Origin: Bacteroidia bacterium
GTDB taxonomy: Bacteria > Bacteroidota > Bacteroidia > NS11-12g > UBA9320
Length of the DNA: 64,000 nt
Direction: 5' to 3'
Assembly (NCBI GenBank): GCA_965216465.1
Contig: CBDCFW010000006.1
Location: 320,001 to 384,000 of the forward strand
In this document: piece after piece, positions 5,690-61,764 of the stretch
Numbering within the stretch: the stretch's first letter is position 1
Layout: every line of letters begins with the position of its first letter
The notes under the pieces: generated by a model
The model's input: only the letters and a program-made list of their open reading frames with translations
The model's database searches: none
Told to the model about the DNA's origin: nothing
Position numbers and translations under genes: made by a program

Positions 5690-5723
5690 GATTAAGAAAC
5701 GAATATGGAGGCTAAAAAGTTGC

Positions 5724-7031: not shown

Positions 7032-7122
7032 GGAAATGAGGTCCAAAAATAGAATAATTTGGTTGATGGAAATATTTTAAATATCTACATCACATTTTGT
7101 TTTATAATTTCAACATTCCGTT

Positions 7123-7130
7123 TATTTTTG
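7123..7130 (+). promoter_or_regulatory. Bacteroidota -7 promoter box for tRNA-Phe
   Basis: TATTTTTG matches TAnnTTTG, 25 nt upstream of the tRNA. Confidence 0.6.
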
Positions 7131-7155
7131 CACCCGCATTCGCAGGAATGATGTT

Positions 7156-7228
7156 GGTGCGGTAGCTCAGTTGGTAGAGCAAAGGACTGAAAATCCTTGT
7201 GTCGGCGGTTCGATCCCGCCCCACACCA
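7156..7228 (+). tRNA. tRNA-Phe (GAA)
   Basis: Cloverleaf: GGTGCGG/CCACACC acceptor, GCTC/GAGC D-stem, AAGGA-CTGAAAA-TCCTT anticodon arm, GGCGG-TTCGATC-CCGCC T arm. Confidence 0.97.
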
Positions 7229-7231
7229 CGC

Positions 7232-7262
7232 AAAAGACCCCTGGTAACTCAGGGGTTTTTTT
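7232..7262 (+). terminator. Intrinsic terminator after tRNA-Phe
   Basis: AAAAG-ACCCCTG-gtaact-CAGGGGT-TTTTTT. Confidence 0.85.
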
Positions 7263-7464
7263 ATGTCTTATTTTGTCTATATCCTACAATCTGAAAGCAA
7301 TTATTCTTTTTACAAGGGAATATCTGATAATCTTTCTAGACGCTTATCCCAACACAACAACAAAGAATCGAAATATACTCGAAATTTTACACCATGGAGA
7401 TTGGTTATCTGATGTATCAAGTAACCACAATTGATTACCTTTGGGTTTCAATGTTTTGCTCTAA

Positions 7465-43052: not shown

Positions 43053-43781
43053 ATGGAAGATTCAGAGAAATACGACAACAACCCACAAATTAGAAAGTAC
43101 AAAGAACCAGATAAAAAGGTACTTGTTCCTGCATCTGGACAATCATCTATTAATCAAATTAGTGATCACATTGAAAAATATATCGGACACATACACAGTG
43201 TATTTCATGAAATTGTGTCATATCATGTGCACATCGATGTGTATTGGGTAAAGCCTACCCGACAACGACCATTTCACACTTTAATCACATCAGGAATGAG
43301 TGATAAACCGATGAACACTTCAGATGGGTTGGAAGGAAGTCAATATGCAGAACTGAGCATTTGTTTGCCTGAACATTGGAAACTGTCAGATGATGACATA
43401 AAAGACGATCTAAATTACTGGCCAATCGGATGGCTAAAATATTTAGCTCGATTTCCCCACGAAAATGACACTTGTTTGGGCTATGGGTATACAATACCCA
43501 ACGGAAACCCCGCAGCACCCTTGACTGAGGGAACTCAACTAAACACTATGTTGTTGCTACCTACTATTGTATTCAATGATGAGTTTCATGAGTTAGTACT
43601 TCCTAATAAAACCATTCAATTTTACTCGCTAATCCCTCTGTATGCAGAAGAGATTGAATTAAAACTTAGTCAAGGGGTAGAAGCTCTTTTTGATGGTTTC
43701 GACAAGTTTGGTGTTTCTGATGTTTTGCAACTCAATAGACCGAATACAGTGAAGAGAAGGAAGCGGTTTGGGTTGTTTTAG
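43053..43781 (+). CDS. Suppressor-of-fused (SUFU) domain protein
   Basis: VFHEIVS..VHIDV, TLITSGMS, YAEL, WPI..LK.LAR.PH, LIPLY.EE. Confidence 0.85.
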   Translation: MEDSEKYDNNPQIRKYKEPDKKVLVPASGQSSINQISDHIEKYIGHIHSVFHEIVSYHVHIDVYWVKPTRQRPFHTLITSGMSDKPMNTSDGLEGSQYAELSICLPEHWKLSDDDIKDDLNYWPIGWLKYLARFPHENDTCLGYGYTIPNGNPAAPLTEGTQLNTMLLLPTIVFNDEFHELVLPNKTIQFYSLIPLYAEEIELKLSQGVEALFDGFDKFGVSDVLQLNRPNTVKRRKRFGLF

Positions 43782-44445: not shown

Positions 44446-45927
44446 CTATTTGATGTTCACCACATCAACAAAGTACATGTCAACCTCTCCTTTTCCTTTT
44501 GCCTGTATCTTGCCGCGATGCTCAAATTTCAAGTCTTCATCATCTTTTAATAATTCATAGGTGTAGTGAGAAATATTAATCCTTCCAACTTCTCCATGGG
44601 ACTCCATTCTTGAAGCCGTGTTTACAGCATCTCCCCATATGTCGTACTGAAATTTCTTAACCCCAACAATTCCAGCAACAACTGGACCCGTATTAATGCC
44701 AATTCTCATCTGAAATGGAGTTTTGCCTAGCCTTTTTCGTTTATCATGATCGTTCATTATAAACTGCTTCATTTCAAAGGCCGCAAGTATGGTATTTTTC
44801 ACAGAATTGGCATCCGGAACAGGAATTCCCCCAGCAGCCATATAAGAATCTCCTATGGTCTTAATTTTCTCAATATTGTATTTGTCACAAATAGCATCAA
44901 ATGCCTTGAAGCAATAATTAATATCAGCTACCAATTCTTCTGGACTTAGCTCCTGAGACATCCGTGTAAATTCCTTAAAATCAGTAAACAAAATTGATAC
45001 AGAGTCAAATTTTCTTGCGACTGCCTCCCCATTTTCCTTTAACTCATCTGCAATTTCTGAAGGCAAAATATTAAGCAACAACTTGTCCGATTTGTGCTTC
45101 TCTTGCTCGAGTGTTGATTTACTCTCATCCAAAAGTTCATAGATTTTTACATTGTCTAAAGCAACGGCCAAATACGAAACCAAGGTTCTTAGAAAGTCTA
45201 AATGATAACTGTTATAAACTTCTGCAATCTTACTTTCAACAGAAAGAGCACCCAATTTACTATCGTGAAGTGAAAAAGGGATACACATGATTGCTGCAGG
45301 ATTGTAGGACCCGTCTAAGGAAGCAATGGGGTCAAATACATATTGACTGTAGTCCTCAACTGCGTTGTTTAAAAAAGCTTCTTTTCCGTTATCAAGACAC
45401 CATTCTAGAATAGAGCTATTCTCTTTAGAATGAGGAGGTCTATCAAGCTTTCCGTCTTTATTGACCCTTATGGTATGTGCAGTAGAATCGGTATAATACA
45501 GCAAGTTAAGATTCTCAACTTCCATACTTGAAGAAACATACGTAAAGAGGATTTGAAGGATGTGCTCTACATCTAAACTTCCCGTAATCTCTTTACCTAT
45601 TTCGGTAAGCAAGGTAATTTGTGAAAGTGAACTTTCAACGCCTTTAAGTTTCTGATCTAAATTTTTCTTCTCTTTTGTTTCAGAATGTAAACTTAGATTA
45701 TCCTTCTTGGTTTTAGTATACCGACTTGCTAGCTTATTAAAATCAGAGGCTATTTGACCCAATTCACCGTTACTTTCAAACGTCACTTTTACAAGTTCCT
45801 CTTCTTTCACCGCAAAACTAGTTTTGCTGTTAAGCTCCTTGATTTTTCGTCTGAGCATCAAGTATCTACTAGTTATAATAACAGCAAACAACAACGCAAC
45901 TGAAGCAACGATTAGGGGTAAACTCAT
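44446..45927 (-). CDS. Class III adenylate cyclase with N-terminal TM, HAMP-like segment and GAF domain
   Basis: ILFTDFKEFT, EKIKTIGDSYM, RIGINTGPVVAG, YDIWGDAVNTASRMES; GAF AIMCIPF..LGALSVES..Y. Confidence 0.92.
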   Translation of the reverse strand: MSLPLIVASVALLFAVIITSRYLMLRRKIKELNSKTSFAVKEEELVKVTFESNGELGQIASDFNKLASRYTKTKKDNLSLHSETKEKKNLDQKLKGVESSLSQITLLTEIGKEITGSLDVEHILQILFTYVSSSMEVENLNLLYYTDSTAHTIRVNKDGKLDRPPHSKENSSILEWCLDNGKEAFLNNAVEDYSQYVFDPIASLDGSYNPAAIMCIPFSLHDSKLGALSVESKIAEVYNSYHLDFLRTLVSYLAVALDNVKIYELLDESKSTLEQEKHKSDKLLLNILPSEIADELKENGEAVARKFDSVSILFTDFKEFTRMSQELSPEELVADINYCFKAFDAICDKYNIEKIKTIGDSYMAAGGIPVPDANSVKNTILAAFEMKQFIMNDHDKRKRLGKTPFQMRIGINTGPVVAGIVGVKKFQYDIWGDAVNTASRMESHGEVGRINISHYTYELLKDDEDLKFEHRGKIQAKGKGEVDMYFVDVVNIK

Positions 45928-45996
45928 TCGTTAGTATTTCTAATAAAAACACTAAATTAGCAAAATCTAACCAACTAATGTGAAGTCAATTTGAAA

Positions 45997-48945
45997 ATGA
46001 TTAACCCCTTTCCTGGTCTTCGGCCTTTCGATTCTTCAGAATCTGAATTGTTTTTTGGGCGAGAAAGGCACATTGGTGAAATCCTAAGAAAACTAGATAC
46101 CTACCGCTTTGTCTCCATTGTGGGCAACTCAGGAAGCGGGAAGTCATCGCTGGTTCGAGCAGGCTTACTTCCTTATATAAAAAAGAATCGGAACGATTGG
46201 ACAATATGCAGCATGAGGCCGGGATCTGATCCCATTGCTGAATTATACGCAACTTTAACCGAATCTAAAGTTATAGATGATGAAAAAGGACTATCAATCC
46301 TGGGAAAGCATGCTCTTGGTTTGGTTCAACTTTTAAGGCATTCACTTCAATCTAAAAGTATTCTGATTCTCGTAGACCAGTTTGAGGAACTATTTCGATT
46401 TAACGCAAGTAATGACGACGAAGAACAAGAAAATGTAGCCAGCAAGTTTGTTGATCTTCTTCTAGCTTCAGCAGGCCAAACTGATGTAAACATCTATATT
46501 GTATTAACGATTCGATCTGATTTTCTTGGAGACTGCGAACAATTTCAAGGCCTCCCAGAAGCGATTAATGATGGTCAGTTCTTAGTGCCAAGAATGAATC
46601 GCGAAGAAATGAGAAGTAGTTTGATCAATCCCGTGAAAATTGCTAAAGGAAAGATCTCGCCGCAATTAGTTCAGAATCTCCTAAATCAAGTCGGAAACAG
46701 ACCGGACCAACTTCCAGTGCTACAGCATGTTTTAATGCGTAGTTACAATGTGTGGTTAAACTCAAATGAGCTTGAACAACCATTAGGCATGGAGCACTAT
46801 GAGGCTACTGGAGGAATGAATGAAGCTCTATCAAGACATGTAGATGAAGCGTTTTCGGAGCTAAACAAGAAACAAAAGAAACTGGCCGAAATCATTTTTA
46901 AAACGGTTACCGTTAAGGGGTCAGATAATCGGGGTATTAGAAGACCAACAAGCGTTGCTAATTTGGCAAAGATTGCCTCGTGTTCTGAAACCGATATTAT
47001 TTCCACAACTGAATTTTTCAGAAAAAGTGACCGTGGATTTTTAATGCCATCTCAAGACGTTGAACTAGCAAGCTCCAGTATCATTGACATCTCCCACGAA
47101 AGTTTGATGAGAAAGTGGATTACGCTAAAAAACTGGGTGGATGAAGAGGCTCAATCAGCAGAGTTATTTAAGCGAATAAGTGAGAGTGCCCTATTGTATG
47201 AAGAGGATAAAGCAGGTTTATGGAGAGACCCTGATTTGCAAATTGCAAAAGATTGGATGGTTTCAAATCAGCCGAATGAGTACTGGGCAGCACAGTATAA
47301 TCCACATTTTAAGTCTGCCGTACGGTTTTTAGAAGCCAGTGACCAACAGAAAAAGTTTTTGCTTGCAGATAAACAACGTAAACGAAAAATTAGAAACATC
47401 ACCGTAGTTCTCGTATTAATTGCTTTATCTGCCATTAGTCTGTGGGCTTTTAACGAACGAAACAATGCAGAAAGTAATGCTGCAGAGGCCTTAGAACAAA
47501 AGAAACAGGCAGACGAGCAAAGACAGAAAGCTGAGACCAACTTCTCTTTAGCTAAAGAACAAGAAGAAATTGCAAATCGAGAGAAGCAGGAGGCTGAAAA
47601 TCAACGTCAGCAGGCAAACCGAAGCGCTGCTGAAGCTCAAGCTTTATCAATAGTTGCTCAAAATGAAGCAGCAAAATCAAAACTAGCAGAGAAACAAGCA
47701 GAACTTGAGCGAGAAGTAGCCCTACATCAAACTCATATTTCGGATAGTCTTCGCATACAAGCAGAACTTGCCACAGAACAAGCTCAACAATTAAGACTTC
47801 TTGGAGTGTCAAAAAACTTGGCAATTCGTTCTAAAATTATGGATGATCGTCAATCCGCCGAACTGAAAACTCTACTGTCGTTACATGCCTTCAAATTAAA
47901 TCATGAGAACAAAGGAAATGCTTTCGATAAAGACATCTTTGAGGCTATTCATCAGGCTTATAACGCTACAGAACTTAAGGGCAATCCACCTTTAAGAATT
48001 CATGCAGATGAAGTACCATCAATTGCGATAAGTAGCTCAGGTATGTGGGCTAGTGCAGGGAATGATGGTAAAGTGTACCTAACCAAGAATAATGGAACAC
48101 CGCAGCTGATTTTAGAAAATGAGCATGTGCTCGACAATGCCACCTTTTCACCAAACTCAACCCATCTTGTAGTTTCGGATGAACAGCATAGTCTTCATAT
48201 TTTAAGTCTTGATGCAAGTGATAATGTACAGGATTATGAAACAGGACAAACCAATAAAATCACCCGATTACTGTGGATCGACCAGTACATTTACAGCTTT
48301 TCGATAGACAAGTCTATCGTGGTTTTCGATGCTCAAACAAATAGCATGAGTAGAAAAATTCAACTTTCTGTAGAACCTCATTCTGCGATTGCCTTATCAG
48401 CTGAAACTATTATCATTGGTTCTGCCAATGGAGGCATATATCAGCTTGATCTAAACACTGATCAACTCAGTAAGATTACCAATGTAGCAGGCGGTGCAAT
48501 TGTTACAGCTGTTGATGTATCTAGCGATAATAATATTGCATACGGTACTAGTAAAGGACAATGTGGGATTGTTTCTCCATCAGGCAATCTCTTACGAACA
48601 TTTAATGGTCATGGGGCTAGAATATCAGCAATACGTTACCACCCAACCGATAAACTCATAGCTACAGCTTGTTACGACGGAAAAGTTAGGCTATTTAACA
48701 CGATAGAAGTCAGCCAGCCAGCCATAGAATTTGATGATCACAGCTCATGGGTTTTAGATCTTAATTTTACAGCAGATGGACGATTCCTCATTAGCACAGG
48801 TAAAGATAAGAATGTAGTAAAGAACCCAATATCCTTGGCTCACATGGAACAAAATTTGCGTCAAGCAATTACACGAGATCTTACGATGGATGAATGGAAA
48901 TTTTTTGCTGGCGAAGGATTGCCTTTTGTTCCTTTGAAAAAATAA
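45997..48945 (+). CDS. nSTAND1-type NTPase - TM - coiled coil - WD40 protein
   Basis: NPFPGLRPF, FFGR, Walker A GNSGSGKSS, Walker B ILVDQFEELF, LP.LQH.L, IDISHESL; TM ITVVLVLIALSAISLWAF; WD40 repeats GH..ISAIRYHP, DH..WV..L.F..DG. Confidence 0.9.
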   Translation: MINPFPGLRPFDSSESELFFGRERHIGEILRKLDTYRFVSIVGNSGSGKSSLVRAGLLPYIKKNRNDWTICSMRPGSDPIAELYATLTESKVIDDEKGLSILGKHALGLVQLLRHSLQSKSILILVDQFEELFRFNASNDDEEQENVASKFVDLLLASAGQTDVNIYIVLTIRSDFLGDCEQFQGLPEAINDGQFLVPRMNREEMRSSLINPVKIAKGKISPQLVQNLLNQVGNRPDQLPVLQHVLMRSYNVWLNSNELEQPLGMEHYEATGGMNEALSRHVDEAFSELNKKQKKLAEIIFKTVTVKGSDNRGIRRPTSVANLAKIASCSETDIISTTEFFRKSDRGFLMPSQDVELASSSIIDISHESLMRKWITLKNWVDEEAQSAELFKRISESALLYEEDKAGLWRDPDLQIAKDWMVSNQPNEYWAAQYNPHFKSAVRFLEASDQQKKFLLADKQRKRKIRNITVVLVLIALSAISLWAFNERNNAESNAAEALEQKKQADEQRQKAETNFSLAKEQEEIANREKQEAENQRQQANRSAAEAQALSIVAQNEAAKSKLAEKQAELEREVALHQTHISDSLRIQAELATEQAQQLRLLGVSKNLAIRSKIMDDRQSAELKTLLSLHAFKLNHENKGNAFDKDIFEAIHQAYNATELKGNPPLRIHADEVPSIAISSSGMWASAGNDGKVYLTKNNGTPQLILENEHVLDNATFSPNSTHLVVSDEQHSLHILSLDASDNVQDYETGQTNKITRLLWIDQYIYSFSIDKSIVVFDAQTNSMSRKIQLSVEPHSAIALSAETIIIGSANGGIYQLDLNTDQLSKITNVAGGAIVTAVDVSSDNNIAYGTSKGQCGIVSPSGNLLRTFNGHGARISAIRYHPTDKLIATACYDGKVRLFNTIEVSQPAIEFDDHSSWVLDLNFTADGRFLISTGKDKNVVKNPISLAHMEQNLRQAITRDLTMDEWKFFAGEGLPFVPLKK

Positions 48946-49026
48946 GCACATAGTAGTCTTATTTTAACCCAGAATATCAGCTCTACAGGCCTGATTAATG
49001 CTGAGTATGGGAAATAAATCGCTATA

Positions 49027-50244
49027 TTGGCACTGCATATTGTGACGCGTTCTCCTCTATATCTTTTTTTATTCTCTATCCTTCTTTCCTGCACAAAGGT
49101 GAGTGTACCCACTCAAGAGCAGAATGCGATTCGTTTCTATGCTAAGCCAGAAATAAGTAAAATAACGAAGGTGATTACCAGCAGAGATGGCGATTATCTA
49201 ATGGTTGGCAAATCTATTAAAGGGCCCATTCTTTTGGTACTTGACCATGAGTTAAAGGAAAAATCGTACACCGTGTATGAAGATTATTGGCCAGGTCAGT
49301 TTAATGATGTTATTCAACGTAAAGATGGAACAATTGTAATGGTCGGTCATACTATGTCAGAAGAATATGGAGCAGGAGAAGATGACCCTAATTTTCTTGC
49401 GGTATCAACAGATATTAACGGTAAGTTGATCTGGCAACACCACAAAGATTGGTATAATTTCAATACATGGAATCGGGTTAAGGAAGATGAGGATGGTACG
49501 CTCTACTTAGCGGGAGAAGCGCTTGTCACCACATTGGCAGGCTATAGTGGGATTTTAAAAACAAATGCCGATAGTGTAGACTCCTTTATTGGGGCGATGT
49601 GGCTCACAAACATGTATAATCCGTTCAATGAAGCATTAATAAGGGCGAATGACGTGGTGTTTTTTGGCTACGAATATGCCAACAACAACACAGGACCTAT
49701 TAATGGGTTGGCACTCGTTCGATCAAAAACCACATTAGACAATTATAGTAAAGTGTTGTATGACCAAGTTCCAAGTAATGCTTTTTTTAAAGTTCGAACA
49801 AATCAAAAGGGTGATGTACTTCCGGTTGCGGGTGGGTATTTAATGGCTCATAATTTCTATAATGGATATATCACACCGTACTTGCGCTTAGTTAAACTTG
49901 ATCAAAGCTTGAATGTAGATTGGGCTAAAGATATTGACATAAACGATGCCTTCATCCTTTCTTCAATCCAGGAATTCGATGGGAATATTCTAATCTCAGG
50001 AGCGACAAATAGAGCGAATACCGAAACATTGATAAATTCTAAAGCGTATGTTGGATTGTATACTCAAGATGGAAATTTAATATGGGAGCATGAGTATGGG
50101 AGCAATGAACTCAACAACAAAGCAGACTATGTAACGTTCGAAAACGATAAACTTAGCGTATTAGCTGTAAATAAAAATAGCGAAAGTGACTTTCAATTTT
50201 TCACTTACACTTTAAACCTGAACGGAGAACTTCAAGTACCATGA
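49027..50244 (+). CDS. Beta-propeller-like lipoprotein, type A copy 1
   Basis: Lipobox LLSC; D..G...W blade repeats; paralog of 54767 and 56612. Confidence 0.7.
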   Translation: MALHIVTRSPLYLFLFSILLSCTKVSVPTQEQNAIRFYAKPEISKITKVITSRDGDYLMVGKSIKGPILLVLDHELKEKSYTVYEDYWPGQFNDVIQRKDGTIVMVGHTMSEEYGAGEDDPNFLAVSTDINGKLIWQHHKDWYNFNTWNRVKEDEDGTLYLAGEALVTTLAGYSGILKTNADSVDSFIGAMWLTNMYNPFNEALIRANDVVFFGYEYANNNTGPINGLALVRSKTTLDNYSKVLYDQVPSNAFFKVRTNQKGDVLPVAGGYLMAHNFYNGYITPYLRLVKLDQSLNVDWAKDIDINDAFILSSIQEFDGNILISGATNRANTETLINSKAYVGLYTQDGNLIWEHEYGSNELNNKADYVTFENDKLSVLAVNKNSESDFQFFTYTLNLNGELQVP

Positions 50245-51506
50245 ACCATTCGATAAAATATATAGTTGTGATCCTGCTCATGGTGTTGGTTTCTGCCTGC
50301 GAGAAGCAGATACAATTGAATCGCGAAACAGATTCGTATATCCATGTTTTCAACGAGCTTAATGGTTCTATTACGGGTATTCATTTACTTGATGATCAAA
50401 CCATTCTTTACACGGTCATGGAAACAGCCTCAAATGGAGCCGACTACAACAATATTTTTTTGGGAAGATATGATGAAAAAAGTGATAATTCTTGGCACCA
50501 ATTCATTGGCAAAAACGAGGGTTTTAATGGTAGAATAACAAGTCTTCGTGATTCTACGTACCTGGTATCTTCTAACTTAGGACCAAAAATCACGCGGTTT
50601 AAAGCCGATGGATCAATACTATACTCACGTAATTTTAGCGAATTCATAAGTAATGGAACGTGGGTCTCAAAACCTGTTCTAGACGAAAACAATGACGTCT
50701 ATATTTCCGCTCGTAATGGTGCAAAGGCTGGTGTTATTTACAAACTGAACCATCAAGGGGAAGGTCAATTGATAGCTTCGGTAGGTTCAACCGTTCCTTT
50801 ACCCAGTTCAAATATTGTGTTGCGAAGTCTTGTAGACTTTGAAGTCATTCACGTTCAAAATGGAATCGCCGCAGTGCGATGTACGTGCAGACCGTATCTA
50901 AGTGGTGTTGATTTTTATACCAATCAAGTGTATTTATCTATTAACTTGACAACTGCAGAAATTCTGAATTGGAATTGGATGACTAATCGGCCACACAAAC
51001 CACCCATTCAATACTTTGAAGACGAAAAAACAATGGGTTTTTCGGTGCGGTCTATTTCGTTAAATAATCACATTTATGGTGTGGTCGGAGGTCCAACATT
51101 TCAATTAGATCCTAAGTACGGTTCAGGTTATCGAAGTTTTAGGCTTCAAAAGCTTAGCTTGGATATGGATAGCATTTGGATTAAAGAGTTTGAGTTTGAA
51201 ACGGACCAACTCTTTTTATACGACGTCATGGCTATGTCTAATAATTCTATTCTAGTAACGGGTTCTAATATCTTGAACGGAATAGAAAAGGGCTTCTTCA
51301 TGATATTAAATGAAGATGGCGAAATTGTCTTTGAACAGTATGCTGTACCAAAATCAACTGGGTTTATAAGTGCAGCAGAGAGTTCAAATGGTTCGCTACA
51401 TTTCGGCGGCAGCGTGCTTGCGTGGGGCCAGGGTACCAGCCAGTATCAGTTTAAGCCCATGCTTATTAAAACAAACAGGCAAAGGGAATTTGCCTCAGAA
51501 CAGTAG
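50241..51506 (+). CDS. Beta-propeller-like lipoprotein, type B copy 1
   Basis: Lipobox VSAC; ATGA overlap with A1; paralog of 53550 and 57837. Confidence 0.7.
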   Translation: MNHSIKYIVVILLMVLVSACEKQIQLNRETDSYIHVFNELNGSITGIHLLDDQTILYTVMETASNGADYNNIFLGRYDEKSDNSWHQFIGKNEGFNGRITSLRDSTYLVSSNLGPKITRFKADGSILYSRNFSEFISNGTWVSKPVLDENNDVYISARNGAKAGVIYKLNHQGEGQLIASVGSTVPLPSSNIVLRSLVDFEVIHVQNGIAAVRCTCRPYLSGVDFYTNQVYLSINLTTAEILNWNWMTNRPHKPPIQYFEDEKTMGFSVRSISLNNHIYGVVGGPTFQLDPKYGSGYRSFRLQKLSLDMDSIWIKEFEFETDQLFLYDVMAMSNNSILVTGSNILNGIEKGFFMILNEDGEIVFEQYAVPKSTGFISAAESSNGSLHFGGSVLAWGQGTSQYQFKPMLIKTNRQREFASEQ

Positions 51507-52520
51507 TTATTTACTAATTCTATAAGATATGGGGAAGTTAAAATTTATCTGAAAACTTAAATTCCTCAGCATTAATTCGTCTCCAATGTACAGTGACGTT
51601 AATTCAAAGTCCAAATCATCTAAATGAGTTTCAGGATTGGCCATAGTATTGGTAAAATGATCGTACTGCACACGAAAACCAAGCTGACCAAAAATCAGAT
51701 CTTTTGAAACACCAGCATGAGCACCGACAAAGAGCTGATTTTTGTTTCTACTCGGCATTCCATCAGAGCTATACTGAATTTTATCGTTGCTTTGCAAAGA
51801 TTCATGCGTAACCAATCGATGGTCTGAAAGCAGGTAGCCATAGCCTAAGTGCGGACCGCAACTCCAATTTAATTTATTATCTAAGCTTCCTCTATAATCA
51901 AGTGCTACACTTCCTGCGATTAAGCTGTAGCGCTCTTTGTACAAGATGTCGATATTGTCTATGCCTCTTAAGTCATGCTGTATGCTTCCTCCTTGATTAG
52001 ACACTCGTATATCAAGATCAAATTTGTCATTTATTCTTTGGGTATAGTTGAATCCAAACATGTATCCCCCTGTGGTTCGATACTTATGCTCACCTTGGTT
52101 GTAAGGATTCAAGCTGCGCTTCACTTGGACACTATTCGCTCCCAAACCTGCAAAAAAGCCAAGTTTAGAAGAGGGAACAACGGTGTAAGAAAGAATCAAT
52201 TGGCTTAAGGCCCGAGGATCTTGTCCTTGAGTGTAGTTTGCATAGTTAGGACGCTCTTTAAAAAGTGCTTCAATAGCTTCTTCGGCTTTGTCTTGATTGT
52301 TTAATGCAATATAGGTTAGAGCCAGAAGACGCTGGGCTTCAAAACGTTCGTCCGAATTTTCAAAACTTGACATACAATTTTCTATACGTTTGACGGCCTC
52401 ATTTAGCTCTCCATTCTTGTATAGTTCATTGGCATCAACCAAGGCATTGTTACAGTCTAGGGCAACCGCTGAAAATACCAAGCAAAGTGCTAATAGAGTA
52501 TGGGAAATTCTTTTTTTCAT
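51507..52520 (-). CDS. TPR-like N-domain plus outer membrane beta-barrel (PorT/OMP_b-brl-like)
   Basis: Signal peptide, helical TPR-like region (AQRLLALTYIALN..DKAEEAI), then amphipathic strands. Confidence 0.7.
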   Translation of the reverse strand: MKKRISHTLLALCLVFSAVALDCNNALVDANELYKNGELNEAVKRIENCMSSFENSDERFEAQRLLALTYIALNNQDKAEEAIEALFKERPNYANYTQGQDPRALSQLILSYTVVPSSKLGFFAGLGANSVQVKRSLNPYNQGEHKYRTTGGYMFGFNYTQRINDKFDLDIRVSNQGGSIQHDLRGIDNIDILYKERYSLIAGSVALDYRGSLDNKLNWSCGPHLGYGYLLSDHRLVTHESLQSNDKIQYSSDGMPSRNKNQLFVGAHAGVSKDLIFGQLGFRVQYDHFTNTMANPETHLDDLDFELTSLYIGDELMLRNLSFQINFNFPISYRISK

Positions 52521-53545
52521 TGCGTAATTACTTGATAGTTAAAAATAATAGAGTATCCGACGTTAAAAGACAAAACGTGAATCAAGAAATCGTCATCTAA
52601 ATGATAATACCCCTGCGAAACGGCGGGATAATCATATCGTGCATCACCATTGTTGATTTGACGTAATGAATGCTTGTAGTTTACCTCAAGACTTACTAAC
52701 CCTGGACCAACCTGTTTAACAGCTCCCAATCCAACATTCCCACCATAAACCAATCGGTTTCGTTGTGATATCATACTTACCTGTTCTAGCGAAAAGGACT
52801 CATTCAATGTATTGTCGTCATAGTAAAAACTAGAATTGCTTCCTAAGAGTAATTCTCCATAAGCTCCGGCATATACATATGGCTTAAACCAATTTGACAC
52901 CTCTGGAGAAAAGCGAACACCTAGCGGAAGCACCCCGTAGGTCAATCTTTCATCCATAGATAGACTTAGATTGGAAGAAGAATAGTCAATACCGTAGTTC
53001 TGAATTGATGCCTGCAAGGCACCATAGATGCCCCATTTCGTGTTAATCTGATAAACCGAAGAGAAGCCCAATGAATACCCTTGTTTTCCGGAATAGGTCT
53101 TTTGGTCATTTTCTATAACCGAATAAACCTTCTGTACTTCGGGAAGAGTGAGATTTGTACCGGCGGAAATGGATAGTCCAACGCTTAGCTTCGGGATAAC
53201 CGTTATTCCTTCAATTAATCGGATAAAATCTTTAGGATCGTTTAGCAAACTGGGTTCAAACAGGGGGTCGATGTTGAGTAATGCAATCGCTTCGCTACGA
53301 GCCTGAGGTAGTTGATTTAAGCCCAAATAAGCCATGGCCCTAAGTCTGTGTACATTTACATTGTCATCGCACGTTTTTAGGGTGTCGAGCATTTCTTGCA
53401 GTTCGCCGTAATCGTACATAACACGAGCACCTTCAATGCGATCTGCGCAATTCTGAGCAGAAATACCGGCGGATACGCAAAGCAACAAGACCACGCCAAA
53501 TATCTTTGTTAAAAATTGCTGTTTAGTCGGGTTAGTCATATTCAT
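52517..53545 (-). CDS. TPR-like N-domain plus outer membrane beta-barrel (paralog)
   Basis: Signal peptide, HRLRAMAYLGLN..QARSEA, LTYGVLPLGVRF, KPYVYAGAY, LSFNVGY. Confidence 0.75.
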   Translation of the reverse strand: MNMTNPTKQQFLTKIFGVVLLLCVSAGISAQNCADRIEGARVMYDYGELQEMLDTLKTCDDNVNVHRLRAMAYLGLNQLPQARSEAIALLNIDPLFEPSLLNDPKDFIRLIEGITVIPKLSVGLSISAGTNLTLPEVQKVYSVIENDQKTYSGKQGYSLGFSSVYQINTKWGIYGALQASIQNYGIDYSSSNLSLSMDERLTYGVLPLGVRFSPEVSNWFKPYVYAGAYGELLLGSNSSFYYDDNTLNESFSLEQVSMISQRNRLVYGGNVGLGAVKQVGPGLVSLEVNYKHSLRQINNGDARYDYPAVSQGYYHLDDDFLIHVLSFNVGYSIIFNYQVITQ

Positions 53546-53549
53546 ATTT

Positions 53550-54770
53550 TTACTTCCAGTTTTCAAGTTTTCCTTCTTTAGTGAGTTTAACAACCACCGC
53601 TTTAGGTCGATATTTATTTAAGCCTAAGCCCATATCTCCAGTCGTTCCAGCTATAAGATAACTTCCGTCATCAAGTTTAATAATATCGTTAAATTCTACT
53701 CTATCCGGGAAATCATTGGATGTAATGACAATGTTTCCTGCTTCATCAAGTTCCGTTATGAAAGGAGTGCTAGACTGAGCGTTGTCACCACATATAACGG
53801 CACCTCCCTGAGGCAAGCCATTTATATTAGCTGGGGAACCATCTAATTTTTTAGACCACAGCTTATTCATCACAAAGTCCGTTTGATGAACCGTATAATT
53901 TCTCATATAAGAACGATAAAGATTGTGGTCTATCGATAAACGATCTATATCAAGTCCAAGACTGTAAACCATACCATTCGTGATAACCGGATTTTTTGGA
54001 TGAGCAGTAGGATACTCATGTTTTACAGAAACAGTATCAGTTAGCACCTTTGTTCGAAGAATTTCACCTGTATTCAAGTTAACCGCATATAACATCCGGT
54101 ACACTGTCGGGTAAAATTCAAAAGAGGTAGCATCCAAATACGCCGTGTCTTCTTCAATTCGATATAAAGACTCTATTTCTCGCTCTGAACTTCCATCAGA
54201 AAAAGTCGTAACAATTTCTACATTTCCATCTAGGGTAAATGCTATAATATAGTTTTGTTTCAAGTTTTTATGGCTAGAACATAAATAGAATTTGCCATCA
54301 GGACCAATTATCGGTTCCGAAAACTGACTAAATTCTGGAGCATTAAAATCTAAGTTTTGTATGGTATTAAGAATTTCGCCTTCTGGGCTAAAATGAATTA
54401 TTCGCCCTGTGCTCTGCCTTTGGCTTACTAAAATGCTTCCATCTGGCAACAACATGCAATTCATTTGAGTATAAAACAATCTTGATTCCGACTTAAGCTT
54501 TTTTTCCCAGAGAACGTTTCCATATACATCGGTCATCATCGCAAAAATGGTATCGTTGTCGTTTGAAGCATTATCCGTATTTCTTCCTAAAAAGAAGTAT
54601 TGATCGTCTGATACTTTTAAAACTGAGGTGAAGAATCCATTAAACTGGTTATAGGTTTTTATGTATGACGAATGAGCATCTTTTAACCCAACTTCTTTTT
54701 GACAAGAAATCTGCAGCATCACAAATACCACCAAACTAAAAATGAGCTTTATGTTTTTCGTAATCATCAT
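53550..54770 (-). CDS. Beta-propeller-like lipoprotein, type B copy 2
   Basis: Lipobox QISC; TDVYGNVLWEK, SEPIIGPDGKFYL, C-terminal AGT.G.G..KY. Confidence 0.7.
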   Translation of the reverse strand: MMITKNIKLIFSLVVFVMLQISCQKEVGLKDAHSSYIKTYNQFNGFFTSVLKVSDDQYFFLGRNTDNASNDNDTIFAMMTDVYGNVLWEKKLKSESRLFYTQMNCMLLPDGSILVSQRQSTGRIIHFSPEGEILNTIQNLDFNAPEFSQFSEPIIGPDGKFYLCSSHKNLKQNYIIAFTLDGNVEIVTTFSDGSSEREIESLYRIEEDTAYLDATSFEFYPTVYRMLYAVNLNTGEILRTKVLTDTVSVKHEYPTAHPKNPVITNGMVYSLGLDIDRLSIDHNLYRSYMRNYTVHQTDFVMNKLWSKKLDGSPANINGLPQGGAVICGDNAQSSTPFITELDEAGNIVITSNDFPDRVEFNDIIKLDDGSYLIAGTTGDMGLGLNKYRPKAVVVKLTKEGKLENWK

Positions 54771-55987
54771 TTAACAGGCATTTTTACTTGACCTTTACTA
54801 TCTAAAACATATCGAGTTAATGAGCTCTGTTTTGTCTCGTCGATAGTTTGAACGAGTACCACTAAATCCTCCCCCTCGGTTGTTGAACCCATAGCTAGCT
54901 GAAACAACTCAGTAGATCCTAAAGGGGCATTCCATTGTTCTAATCCTTCTCGGTTTATGAACTGCACTATCGCCTCTTTGGGAGAATAAATACTAACAGA
55001 AAAATCATGTGACTTAGTCGCTCCCAAAATCACATAACCTTCCCTATAGGAATTCATTTCTTGAAACCTAAAATAACCTTTTGATATATACCCATTTCGG
55101 TCTTTTTCTTTTGTCATTTGAGCAGTCATATGATTTAATACAACAGACCTACGGTACGGTGAAGTGGTTTGAAGTTGGTGAGCAAACATATAGCGTTGGT
55201 TTGGTAAGAGAATGGTCTTGCTTCTTAGATTTACATGCCGTTCTAAAGGACCATTTCCAAGCTGATTTACTCCCATTCGATCTCCAATTCCTATCAGGCT
55301 TAAGTCGGTACTTGAAACCTTTTGAGAATACATTTGCACCACATAATGAACTCCTAATTGAGCTGCTACCTGGCACAAAATTTCATCGTTGTTTATCTGT
55401 ATAATATCTACAATATGAGATTGAAAATTAGGGTCTGGGTGGTCCGATACTGTTATGATAGTATCTGAAGGGCTATATTTAGCCAAGAGCTGTCGTGTTT
55501 CTCCGACTCCGGTTCTACCTGCAACAATGAGGGAACCGTCTGAAGCTTCAATAACACTTAGCCACTGTTCCAAGGCACCAGAGTCAGTTAGCACCTCATT
55601 AAGTATAACTCCTTCTTGATTGATTGTGCACAGCAACGCTTTTGAATCTCCAAAGTCTGCTCCTTTTTCCAGAGCAAGTGTGTAGCCCACGGCCACATAA
55701 TCTCCATTTGCTTTTTGAATAACATCGGTAAAATTTCCGTTATGGTATTCCGGATATGTTTGGTGAAATTTGGGTTTAAGATCAGCATCCAACACAAGAA
55801 TAGTTGGAACATCATTAGAAGAACCAACAACTACAAATTCGTTGTCTTTGTTCACAATGGTTTTTTCCATTCGATCAAAGTCTGCACATCGGTAAATTTT
55901 GAGCTGATTTGAATCAAGCACTTGCTCCTGACGTGTACAAGAGAAGAGGTTAGCAACAAGGATTATTATGATAAATCTATTGATCAA
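54767..55987 (-). CDS. Beta-propeller-like lipoprotein, type A copy 2
   Basis: Lipobox LFSC; PTILVLDADL, GNFTDVIQKANGDYVAVGYT. Confidence 0.7.
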   Translation of the reverse strand: MINRFIIIILVANLFSCTRQEQVLDSNQLKIYRCADFDRMEKTIVNKDNEFVVVGSSNDVPTILVLDADLKPKFHQTYPEYHNGNFTDVIQKANGDYVAVGYTLALEKGADFGDSKALLCTINQEGVILNEVLTDSGALEQWLSVIEASDGSLIVAGRTGVGETRQLLAKYSPSDTIITVSDHPDPNFQSHIVDIIQINNDEILCQVAAQLGVHYVVQMYSQKVSSTDLSLIGIGDRMGVNQLGNGPLERHVNLRSKTILLPNQRYMFAHQLQTTSPYRRSVVLNHMTAQMTKEKDRNGYISKGYFRFQEMNSYREGYVILGATKSHDFSVSIYSPKEAIVQFINREGLEQWNAPLGSTELFQLAMGSTTEGEDLVVLVQTIDETKQSSLTRYVLDSKGQVKMPVK

Positions 55988-56092
55988 GTTTGAGGTTATA
56001 CCGTTAACAGTCTTTGCAATATAACGATTTAAAAAACAACCGATAACTCAATGCAAAAATGAGAGTTGCATATTATTTACTATCTTCCACCA

Positions 56093-56515
56093 ATGAAGTA
56101 TGGTTTCTGGGTTCTGATTTGCGTGTCTTTATTGTTTGGTTGTGCAACCGAGCAAAAAGTAGAGCCCATGGAAGCAGAAGACCTTTTAACCTTAGATGGT
56201 TGGTGGCCTGTTTATGCATTTCAAAATGGCATTGAAACACCGTTAGCCTCATGCAGTAAGGAGATAGAAATCTTTTATCGTCTAGATGGAACAGGAAGCC
56301 GTCATAGATATACCCCATGCGACACATTGGATCCAGCACAACAAGACTTTGAGTGGGAACTGATTAACAACAACCACCAAATTGTTATCATAAATAATGG
56401 CGTAAGAGACACGAACACCATTGTAAAATTAACCAAAGACGTATTCAAGGTTAAGTGGGAGCTTGACCAGTTTGGCGGTATTGTTGAAGTTTTAGAGCTT
56501 GAACTTCGTCATTGA
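56093..56515 (+). CDS. Lipocalin-like lipoprotein
   Basis: Lipobox LFGC; L...W, C..., DGT, W.L, IVKLT pattern. Confidence 0.6.
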   Translation: MKYGFWVLICVSLLFGCATEQKVEPMEAEDLLTLDGWWPVYAFQNGIETPLASCSKEIEIFYRLDGTGSRHRYTPCDTLDPAQQDFEWELINNNHQIVIINNGVRDTNTIVKLTKDVFKVKWELDQFGGIVEVLELELRH

Positions 56516-56611
56516 AGGGCAACGAAATTTGCATTTTTTTCAAGGTCTGAAAGAAAACTTGCCTGATTCTATTCAAAAAGTAGTTGTATTTATTTCACCT
56601 ATATTTGTTAG

Positions 56612-57832
56612 ATGCAGGTTACCCCTAAAATTTTGAAATTGCTATTAGTTTCATTGCTCTGGGTATCGTGCAAGCCTGACAAAATTCCTGCTGAAAACCA
56701 AACAATTCGTTTACATAACCAACATGAATTCGATGACGTGCGTAAGGCTATACACATGTCAGATGGTAGTTCTGTATACATCGGAGTGAGCGGTGGTCAA
56801 CCCTCAGTTCTAGCATTGAACAGTGATTTTAGTCTGAAGTATTTTAAACGATTTTCTGACTATGGACCAGGAGGTTTTAATAACGTATGTGAAATGACTA
56901 ATGGTGATATTGCAATAGTGGGCTACACCAATTCTTCGACTCTTGGTGCTTCTGCAGCAAATAGAAATGCTTTGATGATCCGCATAAATCAAGAAGGCGA
57001 TTTCATCTCATATTTCACGGATACAACAAACAATGCTAACGATCAATTTACCGCAGTTAAAAGTTTGCAAAATGAAGAGCTACTTTTATCTAGCTATTCA
57101 GGAACCCGGGTAACCACATTCCAGCTCAATGCAAATTCAAAGTTAGTGAATAGCCGCAAGGAATGGTTTAACGGCAATGAGGTAAGAGAAGGCTATTGCA
57201 ATTCGTTATTTACAGCACCGAATGGCAAATATGTTGAAATAGGAAATCATACAGTCAGTCAGTTGTCTACCGCGATGACTTTATATGCTATCGAAATTTA
57301 TGCCGATCAGCTTACAAAACCTAACAATTTGAACACCTACCGTGCCTATAATCCGAGGTCTTGGAACAATGTTGCTAAGTTTGCACCAATTCGAGGAGAA
57401 GCATGTCCATCAGAAAACAACGGAGGCTTATTTTATGGAACTACTAATTTTTCAGACAATAAATATTCTATATTACTTTTAGGAATGCATAACGCGGGGG
57501 GCATCTATCTTGAACGCCAGTTCTATGGAAATGGTCAAGCCGTTTTTCAGAATATGGTACCTTTTAGCAAGGGGTATCTTTTATTAGGTTCTACCGTAGA
57601 CTCAACCAAAAGTTTTCAAGCGAACACCTACGACACCTACATCGCTGCCATAGATGAACAAGGCAACTTATTATGGGAACAAACCATCCATTCTGAGTCA
57701 AGAGGTGAATCGGCACTTTCGGCACACGAAGAAGATGGAATTATCAGAGTCTCTGGCTTTACACAAACCAAAAATTCGAATTTTAGCTTTTTACAAGTAT
57801 ATCACGACATCAATGGCAACTTAATTCATTAG
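56612..57832 (+). CDS. Beta-propeller-like lipoprotein, type A copy 3
   Basis: Lipobox WVSC; PSVLALNSDF, GGFNNVCEMTNGDIAIVGYT. Confidence 0.7.
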   Translation: MQVTPKILKLLLVSLLWVSCKPDKIPAENQTIRLHNQHEFDDVRKAIHMSDGSSVYIGVSGGQPSVLALNSDFSLKYFKRFSDYGPGGFNNVCEMTNGDIAIVGYTNSSTLGASAANRNALMIRINQEGDFISYFTDTTNNANDQFTAVKSLQNEELLLSSYSGTRVTTFQLNANSKLVNSRKEWFNGNEVREGYCNSLFTAPNGKYVEIGNHTVSQLSTAMTLYAIEIYADQLTKPNNLNTYRAYNPRSWNNVAKFAPIRGEACPSENNGGLFYGTTNFSDNKYSILLLGMHNAGGIYLERQFYGNGQAVFQNMVPFSKGYLLLGSTVDSTKSFQANTYDTYIAAIDEQGNLLWEQTIHSESRGESALSAHEEDGIIRVSGFTQTKNSNFSFLQVYHDINGNLIH

Positions 57833-57836
57833 AATC

Positions 57837-59123
57837 ATGAAATACGTCTCTTTTAAAATATTCACTTTAATCCTATTAACCGTTGCAGCAAGTTCATGCA
57901 AGAAAGATGACGTAGCGGATCGAAGCAGTGGTCTGTTTGCCGGAATTTACGAGCACAATGGAAGCAATGCAACTAACGAATTAATTCCGTTTAATTTGAG
58001 TTGCGCAATTGAAAGCAGTACAGGGCACCTGTATACCACATCAACAGAAAATATCTCCCCAGATATATTCTTAGTCGTTATGAAAACAGATGCCGAAGGC
58101 AACAAAGAATGGATTAAAAGCTATCCTGTGCTTAGACGATTGGATACCAATATTTGGAACATCATAGAGTTGGAAGATGGTACACTTTTTATAAACTCAA
58201 GAAGAACAGATGAAATTTTGAGAATTAATTCAGAAGGAGACATCATCTATCATAAAACGTTTATCGATGATTGGGATAACGAACTGCAAACCGAAGCCAT
58301 CTCAGAACCATTGGTTCAGGAAGACGGCACGCTGTATCTTTCTGCACGTTATAGTGGATCCAGATTCAACCCTCCCACTAAAGTAAAAACGGTTTCAATA
58401 GACGAAAATGGTGATGCAATTGTCCTTCAGCAGTGGACTGATGAGAATTTTGCGACTATACTATATCACAATGTGGTATATGTTGATGTTGCCAACGATT
58501 CTGTATGGTATATCAGTAGTGCACCGGTTAAACAAGGTATAAATTCAACAGTACTGTTAAATTTTCATCAACAAAATCTTGGAGAAATTCCGACGGGTTG
58601 GTCTGATATGCTTTCGCCTCCAGAAGATACCGCAAACAATTTGGGAATTGTGCCCAATCATAGTTTAAGCGGTCCGCAACGCCACGGAACGGAGTTGCTT
58701 GTGTTATCTTCTCCTGATTTAGCTTTTGGAGTACCAATTCCAAATGGAAATCCAATTCGGTTTTGCAGATCTACAATTGATTGGGCAGCTGATGTTTATA
58801 AGGAGCGGAAATTAATTCATCATCCCACTTATTCTTATAGTGCTCGTTCGTTTACACGGACCGAAGAAGGCGAGTATTATATCTGTGGTGTAGTTGATCA
58901 AGGACTTCCTTCAGAAAAAGCATTTTTGGTAAAGCTGAATAACGATTTAGAAGTAGTTTTAGAAAAATACGACTATGATGAAACATATCGGTTTAACCAT
59001 ATCAGCATGTGTGAAGATGGTAACTTACTAATTTGTGGCTACACCATTGGTTCGGGGCAAGGAAATGACACCAAAACTAAATGGAACTTACTTTGTCGTT
59101 TGGATGCTGATGGGTCATTATAG
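57837..59123 (+). CDS. Beta-propeller-like lipoprotein, type B copy 3
   Basis: Lipobox ASSC followed by KKDD; KTDAEGNKEWIK, SEPLVQEDGTLYL, CGYTIGSGQG. Confidence 0.7.
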   Translation: MKYVSFKIFTLILLTVAASSCKKDDVADRSSGLFAGIYEHNGSNATNELIPFNLSCAIESSTGHLYTTSTENISPDIFLVVMKTDAEGNKEWIKSYPVLRRLDTNIWNIIELEDGTLFINSRRTDEILRINSEGDIIYHKTFIDDWDNELQTEAISEPLVQEDGTLYLSARYSGSRFNPPTKVKTVSIDENGDAIVLQQWTDENFATILYHNVVYVDVANDSVWYISSAPVKQGINSTVLLNFHQQNLGEIPTGWSDMLSPPEDTANNLGIVPNHSLSGPQRHGTELLVLSSPDLAFGVPIPNGNPIRFCRSTIDWAADVYKERKLIHHPTYSYSARSFTRTEEGEYYICGVVDQGLPSEKAFLVKLNNDLEVVLEKYDYDETYRFNHISMCEDGNLLICGYTIGSGQGNDTKTKWNLLCRLDADGSL

Positions 59124-61647: not shown

Positions 61648-61764
61648 ACGTCGAATATAATTATTTAACAATGTTAGAATTAAGTTCGAAGAAAAAATCA
61701 TCTTAATGTCTAGGTTGTGAGTTAGGAGAATGACCAGAAAAATTTTTAGAAATAATCCCCACAA

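Follow-up and report, generated by a model that had tools for sequence, protein, structure and literature searches.

A gene cluster joining an adenylate cyclase to a STAND-barrel-lipoprotein module in a Bacteroidia bacterium: a candidate envelope-spanning signalling system

The 64,000-nucleotide stretch analysed here (the window) comprises positions 320,001 to 384,000 of contig CBDCFW010000006.1 (GenBank assembly GCA_965216465.1) from a Bacteroidia bacterium (Bacteroidota; NS11-12g; UBA9320). Its positions 44446–59123 hold a cluster of 11 genes, encoding an adenylate cyclase, an NTPase of the STAND class, two beta-barrel proteins with a TPR-like domain (TPR-barrels), six propeller lipoproteins of two types, A and B, and a small lipocalin-like protein. 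An earlier interpretation made from the letters alone (the sequence-only reading) had proposed this cluster as a trans-envelope signalling system, and an open reading frame (ORF) check and Pfam searches recovered all 11 ORFs at the coordinates and with the domains that it gave. The cyclase gene (44446–45927, minus strand), assigned from Pfam, hydropathy and motifs, is separated by 69 bp (45928–45996) from the divergent STAND gene (45997–48945, plus strand), and direct reading of the letters between the two starts (STAND ATG at 45997) bore out the head-to-head arrangement that had been described. STAND is followed on the same strand by A1 (49027–50244; lipobox LLSC), identified by paralogy and by its place in the A-type clade (support 97), and by B1 (50241–51506), identified from an AlphaFold model and PDB matches, whose start overlaps the A1 stop by 4 bp. 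Convergent to A1-B1 is a minus-strand operon in which neighbouring genes overlap by 4 bp; it reads A2 (54767–55987), B2 (53550–54770), bar1 (52517–53593) and bar2 (51507–52520). The bar2 product consists of a signal peptide, a TPR-like domain and a small outer-membrane beta-barrel (Pfam matches below cutoffs; barrel-family profile BAR, E 3e-80); bar1, of the same architecture, was assigned from a structural model, its PDB matches and orthology to a barrel of the related locus L031, and its true start is probably an internal ATG. Further along, on the plus strand, lie the gene for the small lipocalin-like lipoprotein (56066–56515; Lipocalin_4 E 0.002, below cutoff), homologs of which were not found in 83 loci, so that it was seen only in the window, and the pair A3 (56612–57832) and B3 (57837–59123). 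A2, B2 and A3 were identified by paralogy, profiles and tree, and B3 by paralogy, tree and a lipobox check, which revealed an acidic stretch after the lipid Cys (C-KKDDVA). A lipobox-type Cys is present in all six A/B products and in the small lipocalin-like protein. Within the 3.23-Mb genome to which the window belongs, the A, B, barrel and STAND genes are confined to this cluster.

Translated from the ATG at 45997, STAND is a 982-aa protein (984 aa from an upstream TTG at 45991); its database copy, P0001, has 982 aa, and full-length relatives are 35–54% identical to it. Residues 6–406 (46006–47208), predicted to be cytoplasmic, belong to nSTAND1 (PF20703), with E 2.3e-90 and 304.4 bits against a cutoff of 27.1, covering profile positions 1–374 of 379. 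The Walker A motif (GNSGSGKSS, residue 45) and the Walker B motif (LVDQFEE, residue 127) are both intact, and G46, K49, S50, D127 and E130-131 are invariant across 31 homologs. A single transmembrane (TM) helix at residues 468–487, preceded by KQRKRKIR, leads into a stalk of 117 residues (488–604; helix and stalk, 47392–47802, from hydropathy and composition) that contains neither Pro nor Gly and in which Ala recurs every 7 or 14 residues. Ala 498, 512, 540, 554, 568 and 575 are invariant in alignment A1, which holds the 31 full-length homologs. The stalk would measure about 17 nm if fully helical (1.5 Å per residue). The C-terminal WD40 beta-propeller (Pfam WD40 E 7.5e-20; residues ~691–975 by Pfam WD40 and propeller families; 48061–48915) is predicted to be periplasmic, because the protein has one TM helix with a positively charged inner flank.

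The sequence-only reading had made its proposal depend on whether the components co-occur in other genomes, and STAND, TPR-barrel and propeller lipoprotein were found together, in this order, across Bacteroidota. A set of 80 genome loci was anchored on STAND alone and retrieved with the alignment of 31 full-length homologs; nearly all were from Bacteroidota, and their STANDs were 31–44% identical to that of the window. Neighbouring genes were called with a custom ORF caller and with profiles built from the window's proteins, applied at fixed cutoffs. Because several of these loci are near-duplicates, they do not represent 80 independent events; the STAND tree of the set nevertheless contains many deep lineages. 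A TPR-barrel gene lay directly downstream of STAND, on the same strand, in 70/74 genome loci with at least 1.2 kb of room, and barrel(s) together with an A/B lipoprotein lay downstream in 51/64 loci with at least 2.6 kb. The conserved order spans records of Bacteroidales, Cytophagales, Flavobacteriales, Chitinophagales and Sphingobacteriales. Directly upstream of STAND, among 71 loci with at least 1.6 kb of room, was a TIR-like protein in 50, a PP2C in 7, a HEAT-family protein in 7, a GAF-output gene in 3 and another gene in 4; a HEAT-family membrane protein was among the three genes upstream in 52/62 loci with at least 5 kb. An ORF of at least 1400 aa followed the lipoprotein in 32/33 and 9/10 loci with room for one, and all four complete ones tested carried the sorting domain of the type IX secretion system (T9SS; Por_Secre_tail) and Ig/PKD repeats. 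The window contains all three members of the module, in the form of one STAND, two barrels and six lipoproteins.

The association was also seen in a sample that was not anchored on STAND, an even draw of 401 genomes of Bacteroidota with a completeness of 90% or more. Profiles of STAND, the barrel and A/B were run against it, and the coordinates of their matches were compared. Besides the window, full-length STAND-TM-WD40 genes were present at 12 loci in 8 genomes, and C-terminal fragments in 2 more, so that 9/401 genomes carried full-length copies, window included. A TPR-domain match stood immediately downstream at 12/12 of the full-length loci and at both C-terminal fragments, and an A/B match came next in 9/9 loci with a small barrel. 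Conversely, 11/11 full-length TPR-barrel matches (E <= 1e-80) were beside a STAND, nine of them directly adjacent and the window's two at 2.6–3.6 kb. The clustering of these genes is far beyond chance, and STAND, barrel and lipoprotein genes very probably form one system. Isolates are found among the records with STAND homologs (Chryseosolibacter histidini, Fulvivirga kasyanovii, Flammeovirga sp., Sediminibacterium goheungense and Mucilaginibacter hurinus).

A metagenome scan added 80 further loci, in which a TPR gene came next in 29/43 TM-type STAND loci with room. The 14 loci that had none were L117, L128 (designations are our own) and 12 whose STANDs were of other lengths (778–2690 aa); in all five of these 12 that were scanned, the C-terminal domains past the TM helix were of other kinds, namely coiled coils, TPR repeats or multiple WD40 propellers. 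A TIR-like protein with a TM-anchored nSTAND1 thus constitutes a broader class; barrel and lipoprotein go with the single-WD40 form of STAND. nSTAND1 proteins that are anchored in the membrane and have an extracytoplasmic sensor seem to form a broad class. Many TIR-like>nSTAND1 pairs of this kind were noticed at L151–L195 (e.g., L160:9983-12754, L162:9949-12519 and L173:9962-16357); their STANDs, of up to 2690 aa, have a TM helix at about residue 500 and after it other repeat domains (TPR, or multiple WD40 propellers), and barrel genes are mostly absent.

Closer to the window, a STAND homolog was present in 0/24 other genomes of the same genus and in 2/16 of the sister family (G037 and G040; completeness 66–100%). 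Its absence from the 24 congeneric genomes indicates that the cluster is accessory. The G037 locus reads, on one strand, TIR-domain protein, STAND, barrel, barrel, unknown, barrel, unknown and a protein with a T9SS C-terminal domain (CTD); when profiles were compared, the 422-aa and 395-aa genes between its barrels did not prove to be A/B-like, with probabilities of 2.9% and 1.0%. In G040 the order is DUF4062 protein, STAND, Plug-domain receptor-like protein and large membrane protein.

The TPR-barrels are weakly recognised by Pfam: OMP_b-brl_2 matched bar1 with E 2e-7 and bar2 with E 6e-4, below cutoff, and TPR (TPR_19) was seen in bar2 only, below cutoffs. The two proteins are old paralogs, 24% identical by blastp. 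A model of bar1 built from 56 family rows (pLDDT 90.4) shows a helical domain at ~45–128 followed by a barrel of ~10 strands, with Ail, the OmpA TM domain, OprG and OmpW as its best PDB matches. With the leading barrel in each of the L031 pairs, bar1 shares 36–37% identity, as against 19% with bar2; its ortholog in L031 is the barrel lying directly downstream of STAND. In the helical domain the family keeps two nearly invariant Cys residues (C49, C75), which fit a periplasmic location of the TPR-like domain. At 10 related loci the small barrel is replaced by a TonB-dependent-receptor-like protein of 843–896 aa (in L079, Plug and TonB_dep_Rec_b-barrel domains with a TPR-like N-domain). A profile of bar1 residues 40–130 matched the N-termini of all 10 (E 1e-11 to 3e-24) and the barrel profile matched none, which indicates that the TPR-like domain is the STAND-associated piece and that it is borne by two kinds of barrel. 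Both ends of outer-membrane barrels face the periplasm, so the TPR-like domain and the WD40 propeller should share a compartment. The sequence-only reading had cast the barrels as relays through the outer membrane; with ~10 strands and Ail/OmpA/OmpW-like folds, they look in the model like small anchors for a periplasmic TPR-like domain and not like conduits. Complex prediction for STAND 620–982 with bar1 40–358, run with alignments and without controls, gave scores of 0.01 and 0.00 against a mark of 0.32, which weighs neither for nor against a contact. As for T9SS components, the window's proteins scored 13.2 bits against a cutoff of 125 for PorT/SprT and 13.3 against 250 for PorW/SprE (NCBIfam), so that neither assignment was upheld.

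Barrels with A/B partners also occur by themselves in the genomes of family f13, as pairs lacking both the TPR domain and STAND. At G350:C12:390580-392525, far from any STAND match, a second barrel without a TPR domain adjoins an A/B-like lipoprotein, and barrel-only matches were seen in three other f13 genomes (G150:C9:535426-536136, G398:C1:2112092-2112802 and G254:C1:1948851-1949555). A pair of the G350 type may represent the ancestral state of the outer-membrane partners, before the barrel acquired its TPR domain.

The suggestion that the A and B lipoproteins are propeller proteins was borne out by the fold model of B1 (57 rows; pLDDT 80.3, pTM 0.81), which is all-beta and matched the propellers of CylK (E 5e-12), virginiamycin B lyase and BamB in the PDB. 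A1, A2 and A3 are 22–29% identical to one another and B1, B2 and B3 19–27% (blastp). Similarity between A and B is marginal by blastp; their profiles cross-match at 1e-6 to 1e-8, so that the two are distant members of one family. Because a third further round of separate A and B profiles drifted into the STAND WD40, reaching 152 matches, a joint A/B profile was used with STAND matches removed, and it converged at 69 matches in 61/83 sources. The lipobox Cys is the sole invariant column of the A/B alignment. In the tree, the A-type (support 97) and B-type (support 95) clades are older than the split of the window, L031 and L116, and the canonical single-copy lipoproteins group with the B clade. 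Copies of either type group by genome, with branch lengths of 1.3–1.9 changes per site, which implies that whole A-B pairs multiplied independently in each of three lineages and diverged fast. Throughout the window's clade, barrels are paired and lipoproteins stand in A-to-B pairs. At least two acidic residues among the six after the lipid Cys, a feature that we take to resemble the surface-export signal of Bacteroidota, were present in 44/66 family members, compared with 91/337 crude lipoprotein candidates of the window's genome. The exposure of the window's own copies at the cell surface, as the sequence-only reading had it, is weakly indicated, since B3 alone among them has two or more such residues.

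The cyclase consists of a TM segment (residues 1–25), a HAMP-like linker, a GAF domain (118–258; GAF_2 E 1.5e-8) and a class III catalytic domain (304–487) belonging to PF00211 (Guanylate_cyc, E 2.2e-58). In NCBIfam the protein had weak matches, well short of the cutoff (E 3e-4), to the TM2-HAMP part of BaeS-type kinases. The motifs FTDF314, KTIGD356, GDSYMA359, YDIWGD431 and NTASR436 are present, and presumably supply the two metal-binding Asp, the ATP-specifying Lys/Asp pair and the transition-state Asn/Arg. The protein has one TM helix and essentially no periplasmic part, and would accordingly need a partner or a GAF ligand. Full-length orthologs stand beside STAND in L031 (49% identical), L032 (43%) and L116 (54%). 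Its catalytic domain has two paralogs elsewhere in the genome, 61% identical, with quite different N-termini, the catalytic domain alone being in common; one is a 662-aa TPR-TM-cyclase (G000:C5:~65000-66991) and the other, of 1131 aa, begins with a large extracytoplasmic region, which is followed by a TM helix and the cyclase domain (G000:C1:~4300-7724). With the window's cyclase, this small genome thus has at least three membrane cyclases.

The gene at the output position varies among relatives. Among 45 of 58 matches scanned, the TIR-like partner matched TIR_2 in 21 and DUF4062 in 27, and DUF4062 is described, in parts of two preprints (10.64898/2026.05.01.722283 and 10.64898/2026.09.04.749371), as the NADase effector of defence systems and NLR-like proteins. 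The ~1050-aa membrane protein of the HEAT family matched HEAT_2 in 32/38, cNMP_binding in 11/38 (best E 3e-13), MFS_1 in 10/38 and TLC in 3/38 (38 of 65 matches scanned), and some canonical loci add a HAMP-PP2C phosphatase. None of the TIR-like, HEAT, PP2C and giant T9SS families was found in the window's genome by tblastn. In trees of the NTPase module, made with FastTree and carrying local support only, the window, L032, L031 and L116 form one clade (support 99), and all four have a TM-GAF-cyclase; L116, with a STAND 44% identical to that of the window, contains a divergent TM-GAF-cyclase, STAND, two barrels and five A/B genes. L117, L045 and L061 (the last without usable upstream DNA) join this clade in a 7-row clade with support 89. 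L117 (7079-9733) has a GAF-histidine kinase and then a REC-cyclase beside STAND, which can be seen as a two-component route to the cyclase domain that the window's protein fuses directly to GAF. L045 has a LytTR response regulator and a TM-GAF-histidine kinase, of which the N-terminal 300 residues alone are homologous to the window's cyclase. The proposed cyclase link thus held within the window's clade, with orthologous TM-GAF-cyclases in 4/4 loci, and in two sister loci this GAF module stands with different outputs. The retention of TM-GAF across L045, L117 and the cyclase clade indicates that TM-linker-GAF is the constant element beside STAND while the output domain varies. A functional link of the cyclase to the STAND system is, in our judgement, likely. 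The ancestral partner gene, which the sequence-only reading had missed together with the cNMP-binding, PP2C and giant T9SS proteins of canonical operons, is a TIR/DUF4062 protein, in whose place the window's clade carries a predicted cAMP-making enzyme. Given that a TIR_2/DUF4062 NADase-like protein occupies the output position in most relatives, the ancestral role was probably an immune or conflict-type surveillance of the envelope, and the window's clade may have turned the module into a non-lethal second-messenger or phosphorelay pathway.

A separate observation concerns the ~1050-aa family (L102:5324-8497, alignment A5), in which HEAT repeats are combined with an MFS/TLC-like membrane domain; 11/38 members or more also have a cNMP-binding domain. 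A cyclase was not seen in the loci of this cNMP-binding protein.

Several features of the surroundings of the cluster deserve mention. Convergent to B3 lies a gene for an 831-aa T9SS cargo protein (59269–61764, minus strand; Por_Secre_tail E 2e-10), a possible twelfth member. Its matches in congeners were through the C-terminal domain only, and flank synteny gave no insertion borders for the cluster. Just left of the cluster, at 43053–43781, is a bacterial SUFU-family protein (PF05076, E 6e-42), which was found in 0/5 congeners searched. Between 44000 and 62000, DNA repeats were short, low-identity matches only, which speaks against a duplication of recent date, and template/variable repeat pairs as in diversity-generating retroelements were not seen. 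A sigma-70 promoter scan found 48 sites compared with 54.2 +/- 6.7 in shuffled sequences, Bacteroidota promoters being of another type, and terminator-like sites numbered 7 compared with 11.8 +/- 3.3.

As a whole, this information leads us to propose that the cluster encodes one envelope-spanning signalling system working from outside to inside, a lineage-specific remodelling of a widespread Bacteroidota module. We regard this complete model as somewhat better than an even proposition, and we infer in which direction it signals, which of its parts touch, what is exposed at the surface and what biological role, defence included, it has. The helical stalk would span the periplasm and bring the WD40 propeller up to the TPR-like domains, and the barrels bearing these domains would serve as anchors pairing with propeller lipoproteins. 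If something changed at the cell surface or in the outer membrane, the contact between TPR and WD40 would be altered, and this could switch the nucleotide state or oligomerisation of the NTPase, which in turn might act on the neighbouring cyclase through a TM-TM or cytoplasmic contact and change the level of cAMP.

Certain data weigh against this reading. The canonical order is STAND>barrel>lipoprotein, but the window's barrels do not adjoin STAND and lie 2.6–3.6 kb downstream of it on the other strand. A barrel is absent next to a WD40-type STAND in 4/74 genome loci (L060, L061, L068 and L069), and also in L117 and L128. TPR-only matches occur away from STAND (e.g., G167, G343, G295 and G399), and the A/B profile matches propeller proteins in 190/401 genomes; several full-length A/B matches are in genomes without this STAND (G106, G206, G296, G414, G146 and G126), and membership of the lipoprotein family is thus not confined to the system. 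The cyclase link consists of 4 loci of one clade and 2 variants, which are kin and not independent events. Lastly, tblastn revealed no counterpart of the HEAT protein with the cNMP-binding domain in the window's genome, and no cAMP receiver was identified in the cluster. (The barrel-less loci L060, L069 and L128 have genes of ~505 aa and ~190 aa after STAND and the HEAT protein directly upstream of it.)

The same genes could be read in the opposite direction, with the stalk and propeller of STAND controlling or assembling a surface complex of barrel, lipoprotein and T9SS protein, for the display, anchoring or turnover of a giant adhesin, and with the cyclase, TIR-like protein or kinase as an input or accessory. 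Canonical operons do end in a large T9SS-CTD protein at the frequencies given above, with Por_Secre_tail in each of the four tested, a T9SS cargo gene adjoins the window's cluster, the receptor-like barrels of 10 genome-set loci belong to a class energised from the inner membrane, and the f13 pairs indicate that barrel and lipoprotein are a module of their own. However, STAND NTPases are nucleotide-gated switches rather than motors, the neighbouring genes (NADase-like protein, cyclase, kinase with response regulator) are typical outputs, and the window's clade has retained STAND, barrels and lipoproteins without the giant protein; we therefore consider this explanation unlikely. It is also rather unlikely that the cyclase is a mere neighbour, an independent GAF-regulated enzyme kept beside STAND by descent while STAND, barrels and lipoproteins still form one system. 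Its opposite strand, the two other class III cyclases with catalytic domains 61% identical, the restriction of the association to one clade of kin and the lack of a cNMP receiver within the cluster would suit such an origin, but the cyclase occupies the position directly upstream of STAND that belongs to the TIR-like partner in 50/71 other loci, and the TM-GAF module is kept while output and orientation vary (divergent cyclase, co-directional kinase in L045, kinase with REC-cyclase in L117). Moreover, the STANDs of these loci are 36–44% identical (full-length tblastn) and the flanking genes differ, which indicates that the adjacency has outlived a long divergence.

Abortive defence against phage or contact-dependent attack, in which the WD40 propeller or surface lipoproteins would detect envelope-crossing parts of an invader and the cyclase would signal to a distant death effector in the manner of Pycsar, appears improbable. 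It draws on the pairing of STAND with TIR_2/DUF4062 proteins in relatives, on the report of DUF4062 as a defence NADase effector in parts of the two preprints cited above, on the weak PADLOC PycC matches of the cyclase (best E 1.6e-13), on the accessory nature of STAND, which was not found in 24/24 congeneric genomes searched, and on the rapid divergence and lineage-wise expansion of the A/B copies. Against these stand the lack of a PADLOC model for STAND, the barrels, A/B or the TIR-like partners of L102 and L097, and an output in a sister locus, the LytTR regulator, that is transcriptional and not lethal. Furthermore, the Lys/Asp pair of the cyclase is, as we understand this motif, of the ATP type, whereas Pycsar cyclases use pyrimidine nucleotides, and no cNMP-binding effector is present in the cluster, nor a HEAT-family one in the genome. 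A chance juxtaposition of unrelated envelope genes, to which nothing but the mixed strands in the window might point, is hardly credible and is refuted by the conserved order across five Bacteroidota orders and by the reciprocal co-occurrence in the even genome sample.

Returning to the proposed outside-in system, one may ask what it would represent. To our knowledge, all characterised bacterial STAND/NLR-like sensors detect cytoplasmic ligands. We tentatively suggest, with somewhat less confidence than would make it our expectation, that the loci described here define a new class of bacterial NLR-like receptor, in which an extracytoplasmic repeat sensor is tied to a TPR-barrel, a propeller lipoprotein and a T9SS giant, NADase-like, cyclase and histidine-kinase outputs are swapped, and the window holds a cAMP version with expanded receptor lipoprotein pairs. 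If this were true, NLR-type switching would extend to surveillance of the envelope and cell surface, and Bacteroidota, whose envelope-stress and surface-contact signalling is poorly known, would gain a candidate pathway. The natural output swaps on one sensor chassis would offer a ready-made experiment on immune modules turning regulatory, and the module is common enough for study in cultured strains.

In agreement with the sequence-only reading, which had not recognised a described system here, no STAND with a periplasmic WD40 and outer-membrane partners was described in the literature searched, outside of which lay supplements and subscription journals; the Bacteroidota STAND-barrel-lipoprotein module is apparently both widespread and undescribed. 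Partial likenesses to known systems exist. In FecA-FecR-FecI, an outer-membrane barrel with an extra N-terminal periplasmic domain signals to an inner-membrane protein, and the 10 related loci with a Plug and TonB-dependent-receptor-like barrel bearing a TPR-like N-extension recall this arrangement; here, however, the extension is TPR-like, the partner is a STAND NTPase instead of an anti-sigma factor, and the window's barrels are small. TonB-dependent transducer signalling of the Fec type was rejected for the window, whose barrels are ~10-stranded as opposed to 22-stranded and whose cluster contains no sigma or anti-sigma gene. In the Rcs system, the lipoprotein RcsF with outer-membrane proteins signals envelope stress to the inner-membrane protein IgaA. 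That system resembles the present one in using an outer-membrane lipoprotein and a barrel as a sensor linked to an inner-membrane protein, but there is no homology, and the transducer proposed here is an NTPase switch with cAMP or NADase as output. Pycsar shares a class III-type cyclase domain, and canonical relatives of the window's locus carry a cNMP-binding membrane protein (11/38); by contrast, cyclase and cNMP-binding protein were not seen in one locus, and the window's cyclase has ATP-type specificity residues. The cluster was not assigned to Pycsar: the PycC matches are weak (best E 1.6e-13), the cluster lacks a cNMP-binding gene and the genome a HEAT-cNMP homolog, and the Lys/Asp pair is of the ATP type. 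Zorya, according to portions of PMC11890865, is similar in concept, an inner-membrane complex reporting the state of the envelope to cytoplasmic effectors; unlike the window's system, it is a MotAB-like ion-driven complex without STAND or outer-membrane partners. Avs/bNACHT and the eukaryotic DUF4062-NACHT-WD40 proteins (NWD1, TEP1), in the part of their literature consulted, follow the same logic of effector, STAND and repeat sensor, with a WD40 sensor, and relatives of the window's locus have the DUF4062/TIR NADase effector; these are single soluble polypeptides for cytoplasmic ligands, whereas here the genes are split, STAND is membrane-anchored with a predicted periplasmic WD40, and a cyclase replaces the NADase. 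Classification as a single-chain antiviral STAND of the Avs/bNACHT kind was not upheld, as the NTPase starts at residue 6 without an N-terminal domain, a TM helix lies at 468–487, and the PADLOC match is P-loop-sized (E 3e-4). The nSTAND1 clade itself was named in a survey of counter-invader systems (Kaur, Iyer, Burroughs, Aravind, eLife 2021, PMC8195603), in whose main text the words periplasm, outer membrane, TonB and beta-barrel have zero occurrences, although its gene-neighbourhood source data may hold such loci. Judging by that main text, the systems surveyed are alike in the NTPase clade (PF20703) and in their frequent TIR-type effectors and C-terminal repeat sensors, but they are cytoplasmic multidomain proteins, whereas in the present loci a gene of its own encodes the effector, the sensor is placed past a TM helix, and genes for outer-membrane partners are fixed neighbours.

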